DNA from: Candidatus Doudnabacteria bacterium
Lineage (GTDB): Bacteria; Patescibacteriota; Doudnabacteria; UBA920
Length of the DNA: 64,000 bases
Assembly: GCA_020850635.1 (NCBI GenBank)
Contig: JADZEH010000024.1
Span: 8,617 to 72,616 of the forward strand
Direction of reading: 5' to 3'
Part shown: in pieces, positions 7,157-58,731 of the stretch
How positions within the stretch are numbered: position 1 is the first letter of the stretch
Layout: each line of letters opens with the position of its first letter
Translations under genes and position numbers: made by a program
The notes under the pieces: generated by a model
The model's input: the letters and a program-made list of their open reading frames with translations, nothing else
What the model was told of the DNA's origin: nothing
The model's database searches: none

Positions 7157-8479
7157 TTAGTAGTCGCCAGTAGGCAAATCCACAGGAGGCTGAGCTTTTT
7201 TGCTTTCGACTGAGGCCACTGGTGGCTGAGTTGGGTTTAACGACAATGGTAAATGGAATATCGTTGCGATTTCTTCAGCATTTAAGACAGGCATAGGATT
7301 ACCAATAAAGATACTGCGCTCTTTATACCCAGTGAACATGTATTTCTTCAGGATTTTCTTTTGTCTATCTACGTAAGGTTTTTCAAGGGTTGGTGAAAGC
7401 TTGGCCTTAGGATCGGTCCAAGTTTTTTTAGTATCTGGTTTTAAAGCGTTTAAAGTCCCTGAACCGAGAACGCGCATCGCCCCAACCATTAATGCTTTCT
7501 TAGCTGGGTCAAATTTATCTTTAGGGGCAACGTACATGTGACGAACTTTAGTATAATAGCCAGCCTTAGAAGTTTTATTCTGCACAGCATTAACTGCGGT
7601 TTTTTCAACCTCAGTCATGTTGAGTAAGTTATTTTTCTGATCATTTTTTTGCTCAGGTTTGACCTCTGAAACAAGTAAACTAGAAAATTTAAAATCTGCG
7701 ACAAAGTCAAACGGTGTCATTAAGATATTCAAGAGGGAAACTTTTTTTGGTAATTTTTCGCCAAGAAGAAGTTTTGATTTTTTTAGGGCTTCTTCGCGCC
7801 AACCTTCAGCATCGCCCGCTGGTTGAATAATCACTTGCATACCATAAAATTCCCAAGGTTGCATTTTACCCATGGCTTCGAAAACTGGTGCTAAGGGGTC
7901 GATAATTTTTTGTTCGGCAGTTGGATGTTCAAATTCTTTCCAAGTTTTAATCGGAATCGACTGGTCGTTGACAAGAGTAAATTCTGTACCCCAAAGATCA
8001 AAATCACTGGTTTCAGGGTCATACTCGATGTTTTCCATGTAATCATTAACTTCCACAACTTCTGCTGCCGGATACTGACCATAAATAGCCGCTTCAACCA
8101 ACTCTTTGGTATCAATCGGCGCGCGAATAATGAAGTTAACCTTACCACCTAGGCTCACGACTTCTAAGGAATACCATAGCATCACCTTACCTTCAATATA
8201 CTTGTTGGCAAAAGTCAGGCTAGTAAATAAGGCGTGGAGTTGATTAAAGATTTGTTCAACTGCCAGAGTACTCGTAAGGTTTTCGCGAGGAACTTTAATA
8301 CTCAAAAACACCCATTTTTGACTAGCAATAAACTGGGTGACAATTTCAAAGTAATATAGTTTATAGAGAATATAGATGCCGACGCCAATAAAGGCGACCC
8401 AACCACCGTGCGCAATAATGTACCACAATGGTCCAAAAATATCCCCCAACCCTGCAAACGGATTTCCAAAAATTCCCAT
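7157..8479 (-). CDS. Hypothetical membrane protein (N-terminal TM segments), co-oriented 41 bp upstream of the ATPase
   Basis: 440 aa. Hydrophobic N-terminus (WYIIAHGGWVAFIGVGIYILY). No recognised motif. Confidence 0.5.
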   Translation of the reverse strand: MGIFGNPFAGLGDIFGPLWYIIAHGGWVAFIGVGIYILYKLYYFEIVTQFIASQKWVFLSIKVPRENLTSTLAVEQIFNQLHALFTSLTFANKYIEGKVMLWYSLEVVSLGGKVNFIIRAPIDTKELVEAAIYGQYPAAEVVEVNDYMENIEYDPETSDFDLWGTEFTLVNDQSIPIKTWKEFEHPTAEQKIIDPLAPVFEAMGKMQPWEFYGMQVIIQPAGDAEGWREEALKKSKLLLGEKLPKKVSLLNILMTPFDFVADFKFSSLLVSEVKPEQKNDQKNNLLNMTEVEKTAVNAVQNKTSKAGYYTKVRHMYVAPKDKFDPAKKALMVGAMRVLGSGTLNALKPDTKKTWTDPKAKLSPTLEKPYVDRQKKILKKYMFTGYKERSIFIGNPMPVLNAEEIATIFHLPLSLNPTQPPVASVESKKAQPPVDLPTGDY

Positions 8480-30292: not shown

Positions 30293-30295
30293 ATA

Positions 30296-30621
30296 CTTTT
30301 AGCAAACTCGTAAGCCGAATTCTGTTTCTAAATAATCATCTATCTTGTCCTGCTGTTACCACCAGGATCATGCTGCCTACCAAATTTGGCATTGCACTCA
30401 GGTAAGGATTTGGCCGTTTCACCCTCTACATTACTGCAAAGGTTCACCCCGAAGGGTGCTCTTGGCTTGCGCCGCCAGCGTCACTGTTCGCACCTCTAAA
30501 ATTACTTTCGACGGGAATTACCCGCTACCCTTGTTAATGACTCTATAGTGGCCATCAACTAAGTGTTCGGACTTTCCTCTCTTAGCCTTGCGGTAAGAGC
30601 GATTATTCGATTTGCTAAAAG
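30296..30621 (-). ncRNA. rnpB: RNase P RNA (bacterial type; M1-like ribozyme)
   Basis: The minus strand carries GAGGAAAGUCCGAACAC (P4 5-prime strand), GGGUGAAACGG, ACAGAAUUCGGCUUAC (P4 3-prime strand). Terminal P1 pairing is CUUUUAGCAAAU / GUUUGCUAAAAG. No ORF. About 326 nt. Confidence 0.8.
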
Positions 30622-42125: not shown

Positions 42126-42201
42126 TGGAGCCGTTTTGCGGGATCGAACCGCAGACCTTCTCCTTACCATGGAGATGCTCTACCAACTGAGCTAAAACGG
42201 C
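42126..42201 (-). tRNA. tRNA-Thr (anticodon GGU)
   Basis: Reverse complement GCCGUUUUAGCUCAGUUGGUAGAGCAUCUCCAUGGUAAGGAGA...GGUUCGAUCCC...AAACGGCUCCA. Immediately adjacent to tRNA-Tyr. Confidence 0.9.
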
Positions 42202-51001: not shown

Positions 51002-54000
51002 ATGACTTTTACCCACCTCCATTGCCATACGCACTACTCCCTCCTCGACGGATTATCTAAAATTGGTCCGTTAGTTGATGAAGCCAAAAAGCTGGGAATG
51101 ACTAGCTTGGCTATGACCGATCATGGAGTGATGTATGGAGCTATTGAGTTTTACAACACCTGTCTTGAAGCTGGCATCAAACCAATTATCGGGATGGAAA
51201 GTTACGTCGCCCCTCGAACTAGATTTGATAAAGAAGGAAAAACCGACGCCGACTATTTTCACATCACCTTACTAGCCAAAAACGATACTGGCTACAAAAA
51301 TTTAATCCAACTTACTACCAAAGCCCATACTGAAGGGTTTTACTATAAACCCCGAGTCGACAAAGAACTACTAACACTTCATGCTGAAGGGTTAATCGCG
51401 CTGTCGGGATGCCAACGTGGGGAAGTTGCTCGAGCTGTAATGGAAAGTGAAACCAAAGGCAAAGAAATACTTGAGCTCTATATTAAGATTTTTGGGACAA
51501 ACAACTTCTTTATAGAAATTCAACGAAACGCTGAAGATCCCAACGACCAAAAACGCGAAACCGAACTCAATCGTCGCCTAATGGCTCTTGCAAAAGAGTA
51601 CAAGCTCTCACTGGTAGCCACAGGTGACTGTCATTATATTCACCCTGAAGACAAAGAAGCTCAAGATGTTTTGGTATGTATTGGCACTGGTCGAACTGTG
51701 CAAGACGAAAATCGCTTAGACATGCGCAGTCATGGTTTATGGCTGAGATCGAGCGTGGAAATGGCCGAACTGTTTAAAGATGTTCCGGAAGCAATAACCA
51801 ACACCCAAAAAGTCGCGGACCTCTGTCAGCTCGATATTCCGATTAATCAAAGATATTTCGCCAACGTTAAACTTCCGTCGAACACTAATGCAGAAGAGTT
51901 TCTCACCGTTGAAGTCGAAACTCAAGTTCATAAAATGTACGCTGACAAAAACGGCGTACTCCCCGATGAAATTCGTGAACGTGTTGATTACGAATTAGGA
52001 ATTATCAAACCCAAAGGTTTTGCCCCATATTTTATTATGGTGGCAGATATTGTAAAAGGGGCACACTCAATTGGTGCGATTACTAACACTCGTGGTTCAG
52101 CTGCGGGTAGTATTGTCGGACATGTTTTAGGGATCAGCGCAATTGACCCAATCTATTATCAGTTGCCTTTTGAACGTTTTTTAACGGCCTCTCGTCCAAC
52201 CCCACCTGATGTTGATTTGGACATTTCCGATACACGTCGTGATGAAACTATTGAATGGATTACGGAACAGTATGGGCGTGATAAAGTCGCGCAGATTATT
52301 ACTTTTGGAACAATGATGGCGCGCGCCGCCGTCCGCGATGTCGGTCGGGCTCTAGCCGTCCCTTATGGTAAATGTGATCGCATCGCCAAGATGATCCCTA
52401 TTGGTAAACAAGGTTTTCAAATGACGCTGAGCAAGGCTTTAGAAATGAACCCTGAGCTCAAGCAGGTCTACAACACCGATGCCGAAACCAAAAAAGTTGT
52501 CGACGTCGCCCGAAAACTAGAAGGTGGCGCACGCCACGCTTCCATTCACGCCGCGGCTCTAGCCATCACCCCAACTCCCCTCACCGACTATACCCCACTT
52601 CAAAAAGAACCTGATGGCGAACGCATGATTACGCAATACGACATGTACTCTCTTGATGTTGGTGCCGACAGTCACGCTATTGGTGTAATCAAAATGGACT
52701 TACTCGGAATACGCAACTTGAGTATTTTGGAAGAAGCCTTGAAGTTAGTGAAAGACAGGCACGGTGTTACGATTGATATTAACAAGCTTCCTCAACCCGA
52801 TCCCAAAACCATGAAACTCTTGTCCGATGGTCACACCTTTGGCGTGTTTCAACTTGGCTCATCGGGTATGACTCGTTATCTCAAAGAGCTAAAGCCACAA
52901 AACATTTTTGATATCATGGCCATGATCGCTCTGTATCGTCCGGGGCCAATGGGAATTATTCCAGAATATATTTCGCGCAGGCATAATCCACGAGCCATTC
53001 AATTTTTTGATCCGCGGATGAAAGATTACCTCGAACGCTCTTTGGGACTATTGGTCTACCAAGAAGATGTTTTACTCACAGCAATTAACATCGCTGGCTA
53101 CTCATGGGAAGAAGCGGACAAACTCCGCAAAGCTATGGGTAAAAAAATCCCTGAAGAAATGACTAAGCAAAAAGTGAAGTTCACCGAAGGCTGTGTTAAC
53201 GGTGGGATGCGCCCCGATCGTGCTGAGGAGTTGTTTAAACTCATCGAACCGTTTGCCGCGTATGGGTTTGGTAAAGCCCATGCCGCCAGTTACGCCCAAG
53301 TCTCCTATCAAACCGCCTATATGAAAGCCAATTATCCCGTGGAGTTCATGGCTGCGGTTATGACCGCCGAAAGCGGTAACGAAGACAAGATCTACGCTGC
53401 AGTAGAAGAATGTAAAGCTCTGGGTATAAAAGTTTTACCGCCAGATGTGAACGAATCACAAGGCGACTTTACCGTGGTTGATGATCATACAATTCGTTTT
53501 GGCATGAACGCCATCAAAAATTTAGGAACAGACGTTGTCGCTAAGATTATCGAATGCAACGAGGGCGGTAAAAAACATTTCGAATCAATAGAAGACTTTT
53601 TAGTGCGCTGTCATGCCAAAAACTTTAACAAGCGTTCATGGGAAGCCTTAGTTAAAGCTGGGGCGTTAGACAAGTTCGACGAACGAGGTAAACTCCTCGC
53701 CAACACCGATTACGTTTTAGATTTTGTGCGTGACCATTTTAAATCTGAGAACTCTGGACAAAATTCCCTGTTTGGCGCATCGCTGAAAATTGGCAAACTT
53801 CGCTTACAAGATGCACCACCGGCTACTCAAGAAGAGATGTTGTTATGGGAAAAGGAACATCTTAATTTTTATATCTCCGCGCACCCACTCGATAACTACA
53901 AATCTGTACTCAAAACTTTCCCCACCATCCGCGAAGTTCAAGCGCTGGAAGGAGAACAACTTGTGACTATCGGTGGAATTATTTCCAAAATGAAACGAAC

Positions 54001-54466
54001 TTTAACCAAGAAGAATGAGCCGATGGCGTTCTTCACTTTAGAAGACTCGACTGGATCACTCGAAGTACTAGTCTTTCCTAAAGTTATGCCAATCGCTTTA
54101 CCGTTCTTAGAACTGGATAAAATTGTTCAAGTTACGGGACGACTGTCAGACAAAGACGGCGAAGCCAAAGTTATCGCCAATGAACTCCAACAAATGCCCA
54201 ACGATGAACTTTATTTCATGGCATTATCTGAAATGGAAAAAAATAAGCAAGTTGTGATTCACATGATCAACGCCAATAACCCTGAAGTCTTAAACAAAAT
54301 CAAAGATGTGATTGTGATGTATCCTGGTAATGCCCAAGTTTATCTTAGTGTAGGAAACGGCAACAACTCCAAGAAGATCAAGACAAAATCACAGGTTCGC
54401 ATTAGCCTCGACCTTATCACTGCGCTCAAAGAAATTCCAGAAATAACCATGGTTAGCCAAAACTAG
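51002..54466 (+). CDS. dnaE: DNA polymerase III alpha subunit (DnaE-type)
   Basis: 1154 aa. PHP domain HLHCHTHYSLLDG at the N-terminus, polymerase core, OB fold. Confidence 0.97.
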   Translation: MTFTHLHCHTHYSLLDGLSKIGPLVDEAKKLGMTSLAMTDHGVMYGAIEFYNTCLEAGIKPIIGMESYVAPRTRFDKEGKTDADYFHITLLAKNDTGYKNLIQLTTKAHTEGFYYKPRVDKELLTLHAEGLIALSGCQRGEVARAVMESETKGKEILELYIKIFGTNNFFIEIQRNAEDPNDQKRETELNRRLMALAKEYKLSLVATGDCHYIHPEDKEAQDVLVCIGTGRTVQDENRLDMRSHGLWLRSSVEMAELFKDVPEAITNTQKVADLCQLDIPINQRYFANVKLPSNTNAEEFLTVEVETQVHKMYADKNGVLPDEIRERVDYELGIIKPKGFAPYFIMVADIVKGAHSIGAITNTRGSAAGSIVGHVLGISAIDPIYYQLPFERFLTASRPTPPDVDLDISDTRRDETIEWITEQYGRDKVAQIITFGTMMARAAVRDVGRALAVPYGKCDRIAKMIPIGKQGFQMTLSKALEMNPELKQVYNTDAETKKVVDVARKLEGGARHASIHAAALAITPTPLTDYTPLQKEPDGERMITQYDMYSLDVGADSHAIGVIKMDLLGIRNLSILEEALKLVKDRHGVTIDINKLPQPDPKTMKLLSDGHTFGVFQLGSSGMTRYLKELKPQNIFDIMAMIALYRPGPMGIIPEYISRRHNPRAIQFFDPRMKDYLERSLGLLVYQEDVLLTAINIAGYSWEEADKLRKAMGKKIPEEMTKQKVKFTEGCVNGGMRPDRAEELFKLIEPFAAYGFGKAHAASYAQVSYQTAYMKANYPVEFMAAVMTAESGNEDKIYAAVEECKALGIKVLPPDVNESQGDFTVVDDHTIRFGMNAIKNLGTDVVAKIIECNEGGKKHFESIEDFLVRCHAKNFNKRSWEALVKAGALDKFDERGKLLANTDYVLDFVRDHFKSENSGQNSLFGASLKIGKLRLQDAPPATQEEMLLWEKEHLNFYISAHPLDNYKSVLKTFPTIREVQALEGEQLVTIGGIISKMKRTLTKKNEPMAFFTLEDSTGSLEVLVFPKVMPIALPFLELDKIVQVTGRLSDKDGEAKVIANELQQMPNDELYFMALSEMEKNKQVVIHMINANNPEVLNKIKDVIVMYPGNAQVYLSVGNGNNSKKIKTKSQVRISLDLITALKEIPEITMVSQN

Positions 54467-54487
54467 AGCTTGTGGTATACTGAAGGC

Positions 54488-54742
54488 AATTTGCACTAAA
54501 GAGAATTGGCTTTCCCCTGGTCCAGCTAGTTACCCTCGCCTTTAGGAACATGTTTGAGACAATCGGCCCCACATACTGGAGAGTAGTTACTCCAGACATT
54601 CCCCACCTAAGAGCCAATTCTCACAATCGGTCAGTAGTGAATACCAGTCCAACAAGGAGGACTATCAAGCGCCTAGGCGCTTACCCCAAGTAGCACACCC
54701 AGTCACAGCGTTCCCGCGCAATGGTGTTGCTTGGGTTTTTTT
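54488..54742 (+). ncRNA. Candidate structured small RNA (~255 nt) with extended -10 promoter and intrinsic terminator; family unknown
   Basis: TGgTATACT extended -10 at 54473-54481. No ORF of 60 aa or more on this strand. Long-range stem GAGAAUUGGCU (54502-54512) pairs with AGCCAAUUCUC (54610-54620). Internal hairpins (cuggag/cuccag; GCGCCUAGGCGC). Terminal stem cccaag/cttggg followed by T7. Confidence 0.35.
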
Positions 54743-54744
54743 AT

Positions 54745-54773
54745 TTGACAAAAAGGGGTAATAGTCCTAGAAT
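54745..54773 (+). promoter_or_regulatory. Consensus-like sigma70 promoter TTGACA-17-TAGAAT
   Basis: -35 at 54745-54750, -10 at 54768-54773. GGAGAAAG Shine-Dalgarno before the ATG at 54855. Confidence 0.45.
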
Positions 54774-54854
54774 GAGCAAAGTTTCAACTAGAAGCACGGC
54801 TCATACAGCGTGTTTATCACCCAACGCCCAGCCGAAGCGAATTGGAGAAAGCTC

Positions 54855-55346
54855 ATGAAGAGTCTCCTTTCGATGCTGTCCGTTGCAATCGTCTTCGCTT
54901 TCGTGTCACCTCTGGTGGCCGACCTCGAGGCGAAAGCGAGTTCGACCAACAAATCGCCGCCGAGCATTACCATCACGGGTCAGCGCATCCATTACGGATC
55001 TGACGATGTGAACACGATGCCGATGGCCGACCAAACGCCGCTCGAGACGATCACCACGTCCGCCAGCATGGACAAGGTTTTCGCTCCACCGGCGATCAAC
55101 AGTTCGAAGATGACCGGGTCCACCGACGGGAAATCGGTGAACGATCCGGCCGCCACGCTCGCGGGAACCGACCCGTACATTGTTCTGTACATCAACGTCG
55201 CCATTCAACGGACGATGATACCGGCAATGGCAGGATGCAACGAGGCGATTTTGCGCGCACCCCGCAAGTCGGCACGTTCGGGTCCCGAGATCCAACGAGC
55301 CTGGCGCCCGTTCGCCGGCCTCGATCTCAACTCCTCGAAGCCCTGA
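54855..55346 (+). CDS. Small secreted hypothetical protein, high GC (~58%)
   Basis: ATG at 54855 (the ORF track opens at 54810). Signal peptide MKSLLSMLSVAIVFAFVSPLVADLEAKA. 163 aa. The antisense ORFs here are high-GC artefacts. Confidence 0.5.
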   Translation: MKSLLSMLSVAIVFAFVSPLVADLEAKASSTNKSPPSITITGQRIHYGSDDVNTMPMADQTPLETITTSASMDKVFAPPAINSSKMTGSTDGKSVNDPAATLAGTDPYIVLYINVAIQRTMIPAMAGCNEAILRAPRKSARSGPEIQRAWRPFAGLDLNSSKP

Positions 55347-55393: not shown

Positions 55394-55433
55394 CCGCTCT
55401 CGACATCTACGGATGTCGGAGCGGTCTTTTTTT
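55394..55433 (+). terminator. Intrinsic terminator (ccgctc-t-cgacatc / gatgtcggagcgg, T7)
   Basis: About 13-bp stem with one bulge and a tetraloop, followed by seven Ts. Confidence 0.65.
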
Positions 55434-55442
55434 ATTTAAAGA

Positions 55443-55496: not shown

Positions 55497-56012
55497 ATGA
55501 ACTCACTCCGCCATGTTTTGCTTTATGCAATTGTCATCCTGTTCATCTCGGTTATTGCCGCTATCCTGTACTGGCTATTCGGCATTCAACCGATCAACAC
55601 AGTCTACGGAACTATTGTAGTTTTCGTAGTTTGTTTTCTCTGGCTCTCTTGGGAAAATTTTGTGATTTCACCAAGAAGAATTCAAATAATCCTGCAAATC
55701 TTAGCCATGGATGGCGGAGAAATGACAACCTTAGAAATCATCGAGCAGGGCAAGGGCGAACTAAGCAGGGCTGCTATCCACTCCGAGTTAAATTACCTGA
55801 TTGAGAAAGATCTTGTGAGTAAACGTATCGAGGAACGAACCACACCATATATTCCGCTCAGCTACTTCAAGATCACACCCAACGGAAGACGAGAACAACA
55901 CGCCAAGATTACTTCGAAGTTGAGACTTAGCTGGCAACGTACGTGGAGCCAGTCCGGACAGACAATGTCCGGTCTTTTTTTATCCTCAAGATTTTTGACA
56001 CAAACAGTTTGA
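55497..56012 (+). CDS. Membrane-anchored winged-helix (PadR/MarR-like) protein
   Basis: ATG at 55497. Two N-terminal TM helices, then ILQILAMDGGEMTTLEIIE...SELNYLIEKDLVSKRIEE...YFKITPNGRRE resembling PadR-type wHTH. An intrinsic terminator lies inside the last ~20 codons. Confidence 0.5.
   Translation: MNSLRHVLLYAIVILFISVIAAILYWLFGIQPINTVYGTIVVFVVCFLWLSWENFVISPRRIQIILQILAMDGGEMTTLEIIEQGKGELSRAAIHSELNYLIEKDLVSKRIEERTTPYIPLSYFKITPNGRREQHAKITSKLRLSWQRTWSQSGQTMSGLFLSSRFLTQTV
55954..55981 (+). terminator. Intrinsic terminator (ccggaca/tgtccgg, T7) embedded in the 3-prime end of the wHTH ORF
   Basis: 7-bp stem, 5-nt loop, TTTTTTT. Confidence 0.6.
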
Positions 56013-56023
56013 GCATCTATAAT
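55995..56023 (+). promoter_or_regulatory. Perfect consensus sigma70 promoter TTGACA-17-TATAAT
   Basis: -35 at 55995-56000, -10 at 56018-56023. Overlaps the stop codon (56010-56012) of the upstream ORF. Confidence 0.5.
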
Positions 56024-56029
56024 GGTCGC

Positions 56030-56378
56030 GGTTGTGAACTCGGAAGACAAGCACGTCCGGGCACTTACAATCATGCATTAAAGGAACCGATGCAAGGGAA
56101 TCAGAACTGGCTGAATACGCTTTCACCGCTTCAGCAATTTCTGGTCCGAGTTGCCCCTTACGTTGGGAAGTTCCACACTTTAAAAATCCCAAGATGCACC
56201 CACCCAAATCGGTAGAGCCGTGATGGGCAATGACCACCGGTTTTCCCTAGGAAGATAAGGTAGCTCTAAATCAGCGCCAATCGTGACCATGAAACTTTTG
56301 ACCTAGGCACAACAACAAGGAGAATACGAGACAGAAAACCCACCGTTCAGATTCAGAGCTTCTGAACGGTCTTTTTTA
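56030..56378 (+). ncRNA. About 350-nt transcription unit: either a non-coding RNA or mRNA for a 41-aa peptide (MQGNQNWLNTLSPLQQFLVRVAPYVGKFHTLKIPRCTHPNR, 56090-56215) with a 125-nt 3-prime UTR
   Basis: Defined by the perfect promoter upstream and the 10-bp-stem terminator at 56342-56377. Only a weak SD (AAAGGA) before the ATG at 56090. Confidence 0.3.
56342..56377 (+). terminator. Intrinsic terminator (accgttcaga/tctgaacggt, T6)
   Basis: Perfect 10-bp stem, 9-nt loop, TTTTTT. Confidence 0.7.
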
Positions 56379-56385
56379 TCCCCGG

Positions 56386-56414
56386 TTGATTTTCAAAAGC
56401 TTATTTACTATACT
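56386..56414 (+). promoter_or_regulatory. Sigma70-like promoter TTGATT-17-TATACT
   Basis: -35 at 56386-56391, -10 at 56409-56414. Confidence 0.4.
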
Positions 56415-56420
56415 ATTAAT

Positions 56421-56578
56421 AGATTCTGCAAGCGCTGATCCGACTACCACTCGGGAAGTTTGCCCAAATTAAATACAAAAGGTCGCACCATAAGATGCGA
56501 CGAACTGGGACGGAAACGTCTATAAAAAGACCCCAGCATATTGTTCTGAACAAGTTCAGAGCAGCATGCTGGGTTTTT
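56421..56578 (+). ncRNA. Candidate small RNA (~158 nt) between promoter and bidirectional terminator
   Basis: No ORF. Internal hairpin gucgca/ugcgac. Ends in a compound hairpin cccagcat...atgctggg followed by T5. Confidence 0.3.
56532..56578. terminator. Bidirectional compound hairpin terminator (cccagcat...ctgaac/gttcag...atgctggg)
   Basis: 8-bp outer stem plus 6-bp inner stem. T-run on plus and on minus (ctttttat). Confidence 0.55.
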
Positions 56579-56584
56579 GAGAGA

Positions 56585-56854
56585 TCATTTGCACAAAAAG
56601 TAAATGAAGAGGATGGCAACTGAGGCTATGAGAATCAACAGGTTTTCTTTTTGGAAGAGCCACCGGAATGCCCCAAGGCTCATAACGCCAAAGCCAGTAA
56701 GCAAATAAACGCCACCTTCGTGTAACTCGCGATTGAAATCGCAAATCACTCTTCCTTCTGGAAGTAGTCCATACCCATGTATGGCAATACAACATCCGAT
56801 AAGAAAAAGTGAGACGAACACAACTTTCTTTGCACAGATCCACACAAACTTCAT
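56585..56854 (-). CDS. Small hypothetical membrane protein (2 TM), divergent from thrS
   Basis: 89 aa, MKFVWICAKKVVFVSLFLIGCCIAIHGYGLL... GGGGGA SD 6 nt upstream. The larger overlapping ORF (56556-56888) is in another frame. Confidence 0.4.
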   Translation of the reverse strand: MKFVWICAKKVVFVSLFLIGCCIAIHGYGLLPEGRVICDFNRELHEGGVYLLTGFGVMSLGAFRWLFQKENLLILIASVAILFIYFLCK

Positions 56855-56916
56855 GACAAATCCCCCTTTGTCGAAAGTCTATAAGCATATCATTACGAAA
56901 TTAAATTAGCAAAATT

Positions 56917-58731
56917 ATGAACCAAGACGAACAACTTTCAAATATTCGCCACTCATTGGCTCACTTACTTGCATCAAGCGTGCTTGAAGTTTTCCCTGAC
57001 GCCAAACTTGGTGTTGGTCCAGTAATAGACAATGGCTTTTATTACGATTTTCAATTACCACGTCCTTTAACTCCCGATGACCTCAAAGACATTGAGAAAA
57101 AGATGAAAAAGCTCGTGGGTAAAAAATTAGCGTTTGAACGCCAAGAACTTTCTACCACTGAGGCCACAAAGTTTTTTAAAGACGCTGATCAACCTTTCAA
57201 GCTCGATCTAATTAGCGCCTTAGAAAAATTTGGAACGACTAGTGCTGATGAAATTCTTAACGCTGAGCAAGCAACTTCAAGTGAGCAAAGTGGTGGAGTT
57301 GATACAGTCTCACTTTACAAAACGGGTGAATTTACAGACCTTTGCCGTGGCGGTCACGTGGAGAACACATCGGAAATTGATGCAGATAGTTTTAAGCTTG
57401 ATAAGATTGCTGGAGCCTACTGGCGTGGTGATGAAAAAAATCCTCAACTCACTCGTATTTACGGACTAGCTTTTGAAAACAAAGAAGCGCTTGATGAATA
57501 CTTGCACATGCGCGAAGAAGCTGAAAAGCGCGACCACAAAAAACTTGGACGTGAATTAAAACTCTTTACCATTTCTGACTTAGTCGGTGCTGGCCTGCCT
57601 TTGATTCAACCAAAAGGTATGGTTATCCGCAAAACGATTGAAGATTATTTATGGTCACTCCACGCTGATAAAGGTTACTCACGAGTCTGGACACCTCATA
57701 TTGCGAAAGAGGCTTTATACGAAACTTCTGGTCACGCCGCTAAATTCGGTGATGAACTTTTCCGTGTACAAGGAAAAGAGGACAAATTCATCATGAAGCC
57801 CATGAACTGCCCACATCACATGCAACTCTACGCGGATAATCAATTCTCGTATCGTGATATGCCTGTTCGTTACTTTGAACCCGCTACAGTCTATCGTGAT
57901 GAAAAATCAGGACAACTTGGTGGATTGACTCGCGTTCGAAGCATTACGCAAGACGATGGTCATTTATTCTGTCGCGTCTCACAAATCGAACAAGAAGTTA
58001 GTATGATCGTTTCTGTCATCACCGAATTTTATAGCTCCGTAGGAATGTTAGATAGCTATTGGGTAAGTCTTTCGGTTCGTGGTGAAGATAAATCTAAATA
58101 CTTGGGTGAGGATAGTGTCTGGGAAATGGCTGAAAGTAGCCTCGAACAAGCTGCCAAAGCGAATAATTTGCCTTACAAACGAATGGTCGGTGAAGCCGCG
58201 TTCTATGGACCAAAGCTCGACTTTATGTTTAAAGATTCGATTGGCCGTGAGTGGCAATTAGCTACCATTCAATGTGACTTTAACCTACCCGCACGGTTTG
58301 AATTAGCTTACAAAAATGAAAAAGGCGAAGATGAACAACCAGTTGTTATTCACCGTGCTATTTCAGGCTCACTCGAGCGCTTTATGGGAATTCTAATCGA
58401 ACATTATGCTGGAGCGTTCCCAGTGTGGTTAGCACCTGTCCAAGCTTCTGTCTTACCAATCTCAGACAAACATTTAGATTACGCTCAAGACGTAAAACAA
58501 CAACTTCACGAAGCTGGTATCCGAGTTGAACTCGATGACCGTAGTGAATCAATCGGGAAGAAAATTCGTGAAGCCACCAAGCAAAAAGTTCCTTACATGC
58601 TCGTTGTTGGTGACAAAGAAGTCGAAGCTGGTAAAGTCGCCATTCGAAATTTGGCCGGTGATGATCTTGGCACAATGACAATCCCAGACTTGATCAACAA
58701 ACTCCAACAAGAAATTACAACTAAAGCCTAA
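56917..58731 (+). CDS. thrS: Threonine--tRNA ligase
   Basis: 604 aa. Class II aaRS motifs and a ThrRS catalytic core (HRAISGSLERFMGILIEHYAG), C-terminal anticodon-binding domain. Confidence 0.97.
   Translation: MNQDEQLSNIRHSLAHLLASSVLEVFPDAKLGVGPVIDNGFYYDFQLPRPLTPDDLKDIEKKMKKLVGKKLAFERQELSTTEATKFFKDADQPFKLDLISALEKFGTTSADEILNAEQATSSEQSGGVDTVSLYKTGEFTDLCRGGHVENTSEIDADSFKLDKIAGAYWRGDEKNPQLTRIYGLAFENKEALDEYLHMREEAEKRDHKKLGRELKLFTISDLVGAGLPLIQPKGMVIRKTIEDYLWSLHADKGYSRVWTPHIAKEALYETSGHAAKFGDELFRVQGKEDKFIMKPMNCPHHMQLYADNQFSYRDMPVRYFEPATVYRDEKSGQLGGLTRVRSITQDDGHLFCRVSQIEQEVSMIVSVITEFYSSVGMLDSYWVSLSVRGEDKSKYLGEDSVWEMAESSLEQAAKANNLPYKRMVGEAAFYGPKLDFMFKDSIGREWQLATIQCDFNLPARFELAYKNEKGEDEQPVVIHRAISGSLERFMGILIEHYAGAFPVWLAPVQASVLPISDKHLDYAQDVKQQLHEAGIRVELDDRSESIGKKIREATKQKVPYMLVVGDKEVEAGKVAIRNLAGDDLGTMTIPDLINKLQQEITTKA

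Follow-up and report, generated by a model that had tools for sequence, protein, structure and literature searches.

Locus and genomic context

The stretch of DNA analysed here (64,000 nt, hereafter the window) belongs to Candidatus Doudnabacteria (Patescibacteria/CPR), its DnaE protein being identical to that of a MAG deposited at NCBI and having its nearest relatives in Doudnabacteria MAGs. Elsewhere in the Doudnabacteria, a promoter, a T-box-like leader of conserved structure and thrS come right after dnaE, with no island between them, while in the window the thrS leader is displaced 1.9 kb downstream. Since the leader is displaced in comparison with the relatives, the candidate RNA located 3' of dnaE and named here RNA-A can be regarded as the first unit of an island of about 1.9 kb, lying between dnaE and the thrS leader. 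Within it, RNA-A is followed by a promoter, a GC-rich secreted ORF, a membrane protein (weak wHTH match) and RNA-B, in this order. The features of the locus are as follows.

51002-54466, + strand: dnaE, directly upstream of RNA-A
54488-54742, + strand: predicted RNA-A transcript, about 255 nt
54745-54773: next promoter, TTGACA-17-TAGAAT, near-consensus, directly after the RNA-A terminator
54855-55346: GC-rich orphan secreted ORF with the promoter 54745-54773 and a terminator at about 55395-55435
55497-56012: gene of a 171-aa predicted membrane protein with hydrophobic segments at the N-terminus
55996-56378: RNA-B, a second promoter-to-terminator unit without an ORF (body about 350 nt, from 56030)
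56386-56580: T-box-like thrS leader
56556-56888, - strand: antisense ORF of a 110-aa predicted membrane protein, between the thrS leader terminator and the thrS start
56917-58731: thrS, 2.2 kb from RNA-A, with its own leader in front

The GC-rich ORF encodes 163 aa, has 57-61% GC (42% in the genome) and a signal-peptide-like N-terminus. A Pfam search gave no match for it, and just 4 relatives were retrieved among 1.84 billion representative proteins, one of them being a 1542-aa protein (residues 29-59 repeated nine times); a protein search with the GC-rich ORF of locus L012 gave no matches. Two assemblies of relatives, L161 and L162, end 27 nt into this ORF. As to the 171-aa membrane protein, its similarity to a winged-helix domain (Penicillinase_R, E=0.005) is weak and stays below the cut-off; the identical sequence is encoded on six further contigs, and the gene is present or absent among the island variants. 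RNA-B has the promoter TTGACA-17-TATAAT (55996-56024) and a terminator at 56343-56375; it was found in L166 too, and L163 and L165 lack it. The fold of RNA-B does not reach significant stability (z -1.07), and no Rfam family matches it. In the position of the antisense ORF 56556-56888, L165 carries a different ORF of 128 aa and L163 none. Because of the location of this ORF in the window, read-through transcripts from the thrS leader must cross an antisense gene. Elsewhere in the window, the class A RNase P RNA (30295-30618, - strand, 324 nt) reaches only 108.6 bits, the gathering score being 100; its shortness and low score suggest a reduced RNase P RNA.

Architecture of RNA-A

The following elements were recognized in and immediately before RNA-A.

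54454-54481, + strand: RNA-A promoter (-35 TAGCCA at 54454-54459, 16-nt spacer, extended -10 TGgTATACT at 54473-54481)
54501-54513, + strand: 5' arm of helix P1, GAGAAUUGGCUUU, the most conserved block across the alleles
54514-54575, + strand: J1, the C/A-rich, G-poor interior of P1, predicted to be mostly unpaired
54576-54595, + strand: hairpin P2, CUGGAG-AGUAGUUA-CUCCAG, 6 bp, enclosed by P1
54610-54622, + strand: 3' arm of P1, AGAGCCAAUUCUC
54623-54666, + strand: spacer J3, found in alleles 1 and 2 and reduced to 9 nt in allele 3
54667-54682, + strand: hairpin P3, AAGCGC-CUAG-GCGCUU, the 16-nt palindrome AAGCGCCTAGGCGCTT
54685-54742, + strand: intrinsic terminator (12-bp stem 54685-54696 / 54724-54735, 27-nt structured loop, T7 at 54736-54742)

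The -35 element is weak and lies within the final dnaE codons. As the RNA-A terminator is the first one after dnaE, RNA-A would also constitute the dnaE 3' UTR. The extended -10, the perfect palindrome and the long terminal hairpin followed by T7, all of them listed in the preliminary description of the region, were found again at the positions given above, and P2 corresponds to the enclosed local hairpin mentioned there. The long-range helix of 11 bp is present as well, although its coordinates were off by 1-2 nt (54502-12 / 54610-20): the perfect 11-bp inverted repeat spans 54501-54511 / 54612-54622, and one G-U and one A-U pair extend it to the 13-bp helix P1 (54501-54513 / 54610-54622). 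By our estimate, about 0.015 perfect inverted repeats of 11 bp are expected by chance in about 360 nt.

The interior of P1 is unusual in its composition. The first 200 nt of RNA-A contain 9 CCC triplets; tiles of 200 nt taken across the window average 1.6, and just 0.08% of them reach 9. The C-runs of J1 (54514-17, 54533-35 and 54567-70) have a predicted probability of being unpaired of 0.6-0.8, and J1 ends with a conserved CCCACA immediately 5' of P2; in all three alleles described below the C-runs are predicted to be unpaired. Spacer J3 carries an SD-like AAGGAGGA (54654-54661), which no start codon follows.

Folding gave z-scores of -2.24 (whole RNA-A), -2.2 (5' domain) and -4.1 (P3 with the terminator); the largest share of the signal thus comes from the latter part, for which the values range from -4.1 to -6.4 across the three alleles. 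When folded separately, each of the alleles gave the same four helices, and both the MFE and the centroid folds consist of a 5' domain closed by P1 and two separate 3' hairpins, the ends being unpaired.

Alleles and haplotypes among the relatives

All relatives of RNA-A fall within the 90% DnaE cluster of the window's genus, and their orthology was read from synteny. The haplotypes are as follows.

Allele 1: the window only; RNA-A present
Allele 2: L161, L162, L166, L167, L169 and L175 (six contigs from at least five samples), the commonest allele
Allele 3: L012/L165, 55% divergence at dnaE fourfold sites; same architecture, different sequence
L163/L164: no RNA-A, 12 contigs, 52% fourfold divergence; the region from the dnaE stop to the inside of the terminator is missing
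L168: no RNA-A, a short unrelated spacer only; the contig holds the last 64 nt of dnaE (2 differences)

Allele 2, whose dnaE differs from that of the window at 2.6% of fourfold sites (as measured on L161), has a single difference from the window in the first 79 nt, the remainder being diverged. Its P1 3' arm reads GAGCCAGCUCU, which makes P1 interrupted (4+7 bp with an AA bulge), and its 5' domain folds no better than shuffled sequences (z -0.52). The P3 loop differs from that of allele 1 too; in P3 and the terminator alike, the loops change between alleles 1 and 2 while the stems stay intact.

Allele 3 retains the -10 in the form TGcTATAAT, P1 (AGGAUUGGCU/GGCCAAUCCU), P2, a P3-like hairpin and the terminator, so both promoter and terminator are conserved in it. 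Within the P1 5' arm GAUUGGCUUUC is identical, and so is the 11-nt block GATTGGCTTTC, despite the 55% divergence at fourfold sites. P1 of this allele shows one compensatory pair (A-U to G-C) and a shortening by one pair on both strands; the hairpin in the position of P3, GGCGA-GUAA-UCGCC, provides two more compensatory pairs. Five base pairs of P2 (CUGGA/UCCAG) are invariant across all alleles, the loop being variable. Alleles 1 and 3 disagree at most of the unpaired positions, and the identity of their 5' domains is below 50%, i.e., near the 45% identity of the dnaE fourfold sites; the C-runs are not positionally conserved between them, except CCCACA before P2.

In L163/L164 and L168 the -10 is deleted, and the -35 is kept since it lies inside the dnaE coding sequence; in L163 the 3' arm of the terminator is still present. 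Both RNA-A-less haplotypes retain the GC-rich ORF and its promoter; the latter (54745-54773) is retained in every haplotype.

Similarity searches with blastn and nhmmer against the loci of 80 relatives yielded only a 28-nt terminator/promoter match in L012 and missed the RNA-A body. A covariance model of the P1 domain retrieved no copies beyond the known alleles in the window and 177 loci, which amount to about 1.46 Mb of Patescibacteria dnaE neighbourhoods and not to whole genomes. Look-up of the window's thrS gave no further RNA-A allele, and the closest match in a metagenome scan with the dnaE C-terminus was at 69%. A pattern scan of viral contigs produced 2 hits, both to the same phage sequence and lacking the P1 3' arm, with about 2 expected by chance.

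Evidence for and against selection on the structure

The alignment of the three alleles was curated by hand and fitted to the structure, and is therefore biased toward it. It comprises 35 pairs, with 95% of the cells pairing, and in this structure-fitted alignment 4 of the 35 pairs are compensatory, with P1 and the terminator having one each and P3 two; the terminator additionally shows one G-U to A-U change. Pairing and compensation of the hand-curated alignment were matched by 15 of 500 shuffles, and slid-partner controls pair at 26-46%. The G-U pairs in P1 and in the terminator are compatible with the + strand only. The covariation rests on four pairs, because only three alleles, all of one genus, are at hand. 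Covariation in relatives, on which the preliminary description would have its candidate judged, amounts to these four pairs in three alleles, with P1 being weakened in allele 2. Taken as a whole, RNA-A looks like a real transcription unit, non-coding, structured and unclassified, whose promoter and terminator are its own.

The same data have to be weighed against a decaying or neutral hypervariable spacer, in which just the terminator of dnaE and the next gene's promoter would be at work, while the helices and the promoter-like site would be leftovers of a former cassette and have no RNA function today. The absence of RNA-A from L163/L164 and L168, without visible replacement, is in line with such a spacer, and so are the divergence of the RNA-A body, which roughly keeps pace with that of dnaE fourfold sites, the weakening of P1 in the commonest allele and the fact that island modules come and go among strains. 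However, the preservation of GATTGGCTTTC, the extended -10 and CUGGA/UCCAG, together with four compensatory pairs, at 55% divergence would be unexpected in the absence of selection. The stems of P3 and the terminator, moreover, are intact next to changing loops in alleles 1 and 2. We consider a neutral spacer rather unlikely, though deserving serious attention.

The inverted repeat itself could, in principle, be a property of the DNA and not an RNA helix, with 54501-54622 being a MITE-like element. Terminal inverted repeats of 11 bp, perfect and separated by about 100 nt, would suit it, and so would the recombination-prone island, but the covariance model detected a single copy in the window and 177 loci, the flanks show no target-site duplication, and the arm sequence is barely enriched in the 64-kb window (7 matches with up to 2 mismatches versus 2.9 expected). 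Moreover, covariation of the arms between species (A-U to G-C) and the presence of G-U pairs in them are in keeping with a helix formed in RNA. A mobile element is thus very improbable, and we rejected this candidate on account of its single copy in the window and these loci and its covarying arms.

Coding potential and known RNA families

None of the + strand ORFs in the RNA-A region exceeds 47 aa, in agreement with the earlier statement that no ORF of 60 aa or more exists on this strand, and the longest one has no conserved counterpart in the other alleles. A conserved small ORF, named in the preliminary description as a finding that would speak against an RNA, was not found among the alleles: the ORFs of 7, 26 and 43-47 aa are unconserved and none of them has a well-spaced SD, and the small-ORF reading was therefore rejected.

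Comparison with Rfam, at the gathering score and at E<=10 (for the window, the latter search covered 54300-54950), produced only noise (Esr41, bglG and others) for all three alleles, none of which is matched by any family, RsaE and the other Rsa families included. ARAGORN predicted no tmRNA at RNA-A and Rfam detected no SRP and RNase P signals there, so the lack of tmRNA, SRP and RNase P signatures noted previously holds. What RNA-A does display are the generic marks of an sRNA gene: its own promoter, an intrinsic terminator and no conserved ORF. As for small RNAs of Candidate Phyla Radiation bacteria, we found no literature on them.

The earlier proposal of a 6S-like or novel regulatory RNA is supported in part, as regards an unclassified non-coding structured unit, and its 6S-like half fails by fold, by RF00013 and by distribution. 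In favour of a 6S-like or other housekeeping RNA one could cite a length near 250 nt, the strong promoter and the lack of an ORF, and RNA-A resembles 6S RNA (RF00013) as a small, abundant-looking non-coding RNA gene of around 200 nt with its own promoter. It has, however, another fold: in the three alleles the ends stay unpaired, and the extended hairpin of 6S RNA, whose large central bubble imitates an open promoter, is lacking. The RF00013 covariance model gives no match at the gathering score or at E<=10, and the searches for SRP RNA, tmRNA and RNase P RNA were equally negative. Furthermore, RNA-A is not conserved even among close strains, being absent from L163/L164, L168 and all other Patescibacteria dnaE neighbourhoods examined. 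This absence in close relatives contradicts a housekeeping role, and a lineage-restricted and dispensable RNA cannot be a housekeeping one; a 6S-like RNA is hardly conceivable here.

The thrS leader and cis-acting alternatives

The conserved structured RNA that follows dnaE in the relatives, a piece of context beyond the preliminary description, is the thrS leader, and it is unrelated to RNA-A. It was located in the window, in L001 (about 7480-7670), L163 (8200-8390) and L012 (4520-4730), and also in L002, L058 and L090; the Rfam T-box model missed it even at E<=10. The 7-nt loop of its Stem I, CUACCAC (CUACCAN in the family), contains the Thr codon ACC, which matches the tRNA-Thr(GGU) encoded at 42126-42201 (discriminator U). 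The conserved GGGACGGAAACGUC puts CGGA at the canonical T-box UGGN position, and the sister clades L010, L011, L014 and L070 have the canonical T-box UUGGGUGGAACC at the position of GGGACGGAAACGUC. The antiterminator CUGGG/CCCAG overlaps the terminator, and in seven leaders compensatory changes affect 17 of 33 pairs.

With such a leader directly 3' of dnaE in the relatives, it could be supposed that RNA-A is a diverged duplicate of it; a 13-nt string, GTTTGAGACAATC, is even common to RNA-A and the leader of L009, and RNA-A shares with T-box leaders (RF00230), including that of Doudnabacteria thrS, the slot just after dnaE and the succession of a structured 5' part and a terminator. However, by our estimate about 0.04 occurrences of this 13-mer are expected by chance, and the window's own leader does not contain it. 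An HMM built from 15 leaders recognized the window leader with E=5e-54 and nothing beyond the T-run in the RNA-A alleles, in agreement with the negative result of the Rfam T-box search. RNA-A lacks a specifier-codon loop (cf. CUACCAC), a T-box bulge (UGGN/CGGA) and an antiterminator, there being no sequence able to pair with the terminator 5' arm CCCAAGUAGCAC. Finally, the gene next to it is not that of an aminoacyl-tRNA synthetase: a promoter and an orphan secreted ORF follow instead. We regard the duplication of the thrS leader as highly implausible.

A cis-acting leader of another kind (a riboswitch or an attenuator) would control the GC-rich ORF 54855-55346 by read-through of the RNA-A terminator. 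Where present, RNA-A always lies directly upstream of this ORF, and a structured 5' domain followed by a terminator is a layout reminiscent of transcriptional riboswitches. On the other hand, the interior of the putative aptamer is poorly conserved, no antiterminator competing with the terminator 5' arm was seen in the sequence or the fold, and TTGACA-17-TAGAAT follows the terminator in every haplotype, those without RNA-A included. Control by read-through is improbable because of this strong promoter behind the terminator.

Hypervariable patches

Over 6.4 kb the window and L169 are about 99.7% identical, apart from two sharply bounded patches of about 30% divergence. The first of them (54567-54780, 71 differences) spans the 3' two-thirds of RNA-A and the spacer of the next promoter, and the second (54878-54990, 42 differences) the N-terminus of the GC-rich ORF; the 5' UTR between the patches is identical. 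The substitutions are mixed, mostly transitions, and are accompanied by indels. This pattern suggests that the patches arose by recombination with diverged alleles, rather than by adenine-directed mutagenesis. DGR-like diversification was considered and rejected, as a repeat of this region occurs nowhere else in the window and the changes are not adenine-specific.

These patches might be given a wider meaning, if the locus were a hypervariable cassette island, new to science, whose self-contained promoter-gene-terminator modules (two non-coding RNAs, a GC-rich secreted orphan, a membrane wHTH protein and small membrane proteins) are swapped between strains of an episymbiotic CPR bacterium. RNA-A would then be a new class of structured RNA, varying together with the secreted protein and adjusting host interaction or defence, and the patches would reflect diversifying selection on the RNA. 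We mention this as a speculation to which we give little credence.

Proposed nature of RNA-A and its significance

In our opinion, the data are best explained by RNA-A being a lineage-restricted, dispensable and independently transcribed sRNA gene, for which we propose action in trans via accessible C-rich stretches; we assign to this explanation a probability of roughly 0.45. Transcription would start from its own extended -10 promoter, with the -35 in the last dnaE codons, and would end at the long intrinsic terminator shared with dnaE, which is the layout of a 3'-UTR-type sRNA with an ORF-internal promoter. The 5' domain of the transcript would be closed by the 10-13 bp of P1, enclosing P2 and the mostly single-stranded, C/A-rich and G-poor interior, with P3 and the terminator placed 3' of this domain. 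Ribosome-binding regions and similar G-rich sites may be the pairing partners of the C-rich stretches, which, alternatively, may bind a protein that prefers C-rich RNA. We infer discrete expression, action in trans and the role of the C-runs as the active part. No special complementarity was found between RNA-A and the neighbouring 5' UTR, the duplex energy being worse than that of shuffled sequences.

RNAs of the DapZ/MicL type are Hfq-dependent and have short defined seeds. DapZ and MicL of enterobacteria are 3'-UTR-type sRNAs with an ORF-internal promoter and the terminator shared with the mRNA (cf. Miyakoshi, Chao and Vogel 2015). RNA-A is like them in having its -35 in the upstream coding sequence and its -10 just after the stop codon, and in using the first terminator, whereby the same sequence makes both the mRNA 3' UTR and a separate (in our case, predicted) transcript. 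It differs from them in being much longer, and there is no sequence relation.

Another comparison is offered by RsaE/RoxS and the UCCC-motif Rsa RNAs of Staphylococcus aureus, which represent the Firmicutes sRNAs with C-rich regions. RsaE/RoxS and RNA-A are alike in several accessible C-runs (predicted in the case of RNA-A) and in the intrinsic terminator, and for neither of them does Hfq need to be assumed. By analogy, this likeness suggests that RNA-A could pair with G-rich ribosome-binding sites. The differences are that RNA-A has no Rfam match and that its C-runs are mostly unaligned between alleles 1 and 3; besides, RsaE is widely conserved, whereas RNA-A is genus-restricted and dispensable.

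As its promoter and terminator are clear and three alleles can be compared, RNA-A is a concrete target for metatranscriptome work on CPR bacteria. Its presence/absence polymorphism and the recombination patch running through it would point to rapid turnover of accessory regulatory RNA in reduced genomes. The patchwise hypervariability of the island and the thrS leader missed by Rfam are more reusable observations than RNA-A itself, and this leader may prove the more useful lead for the annotation of CPR genomes.
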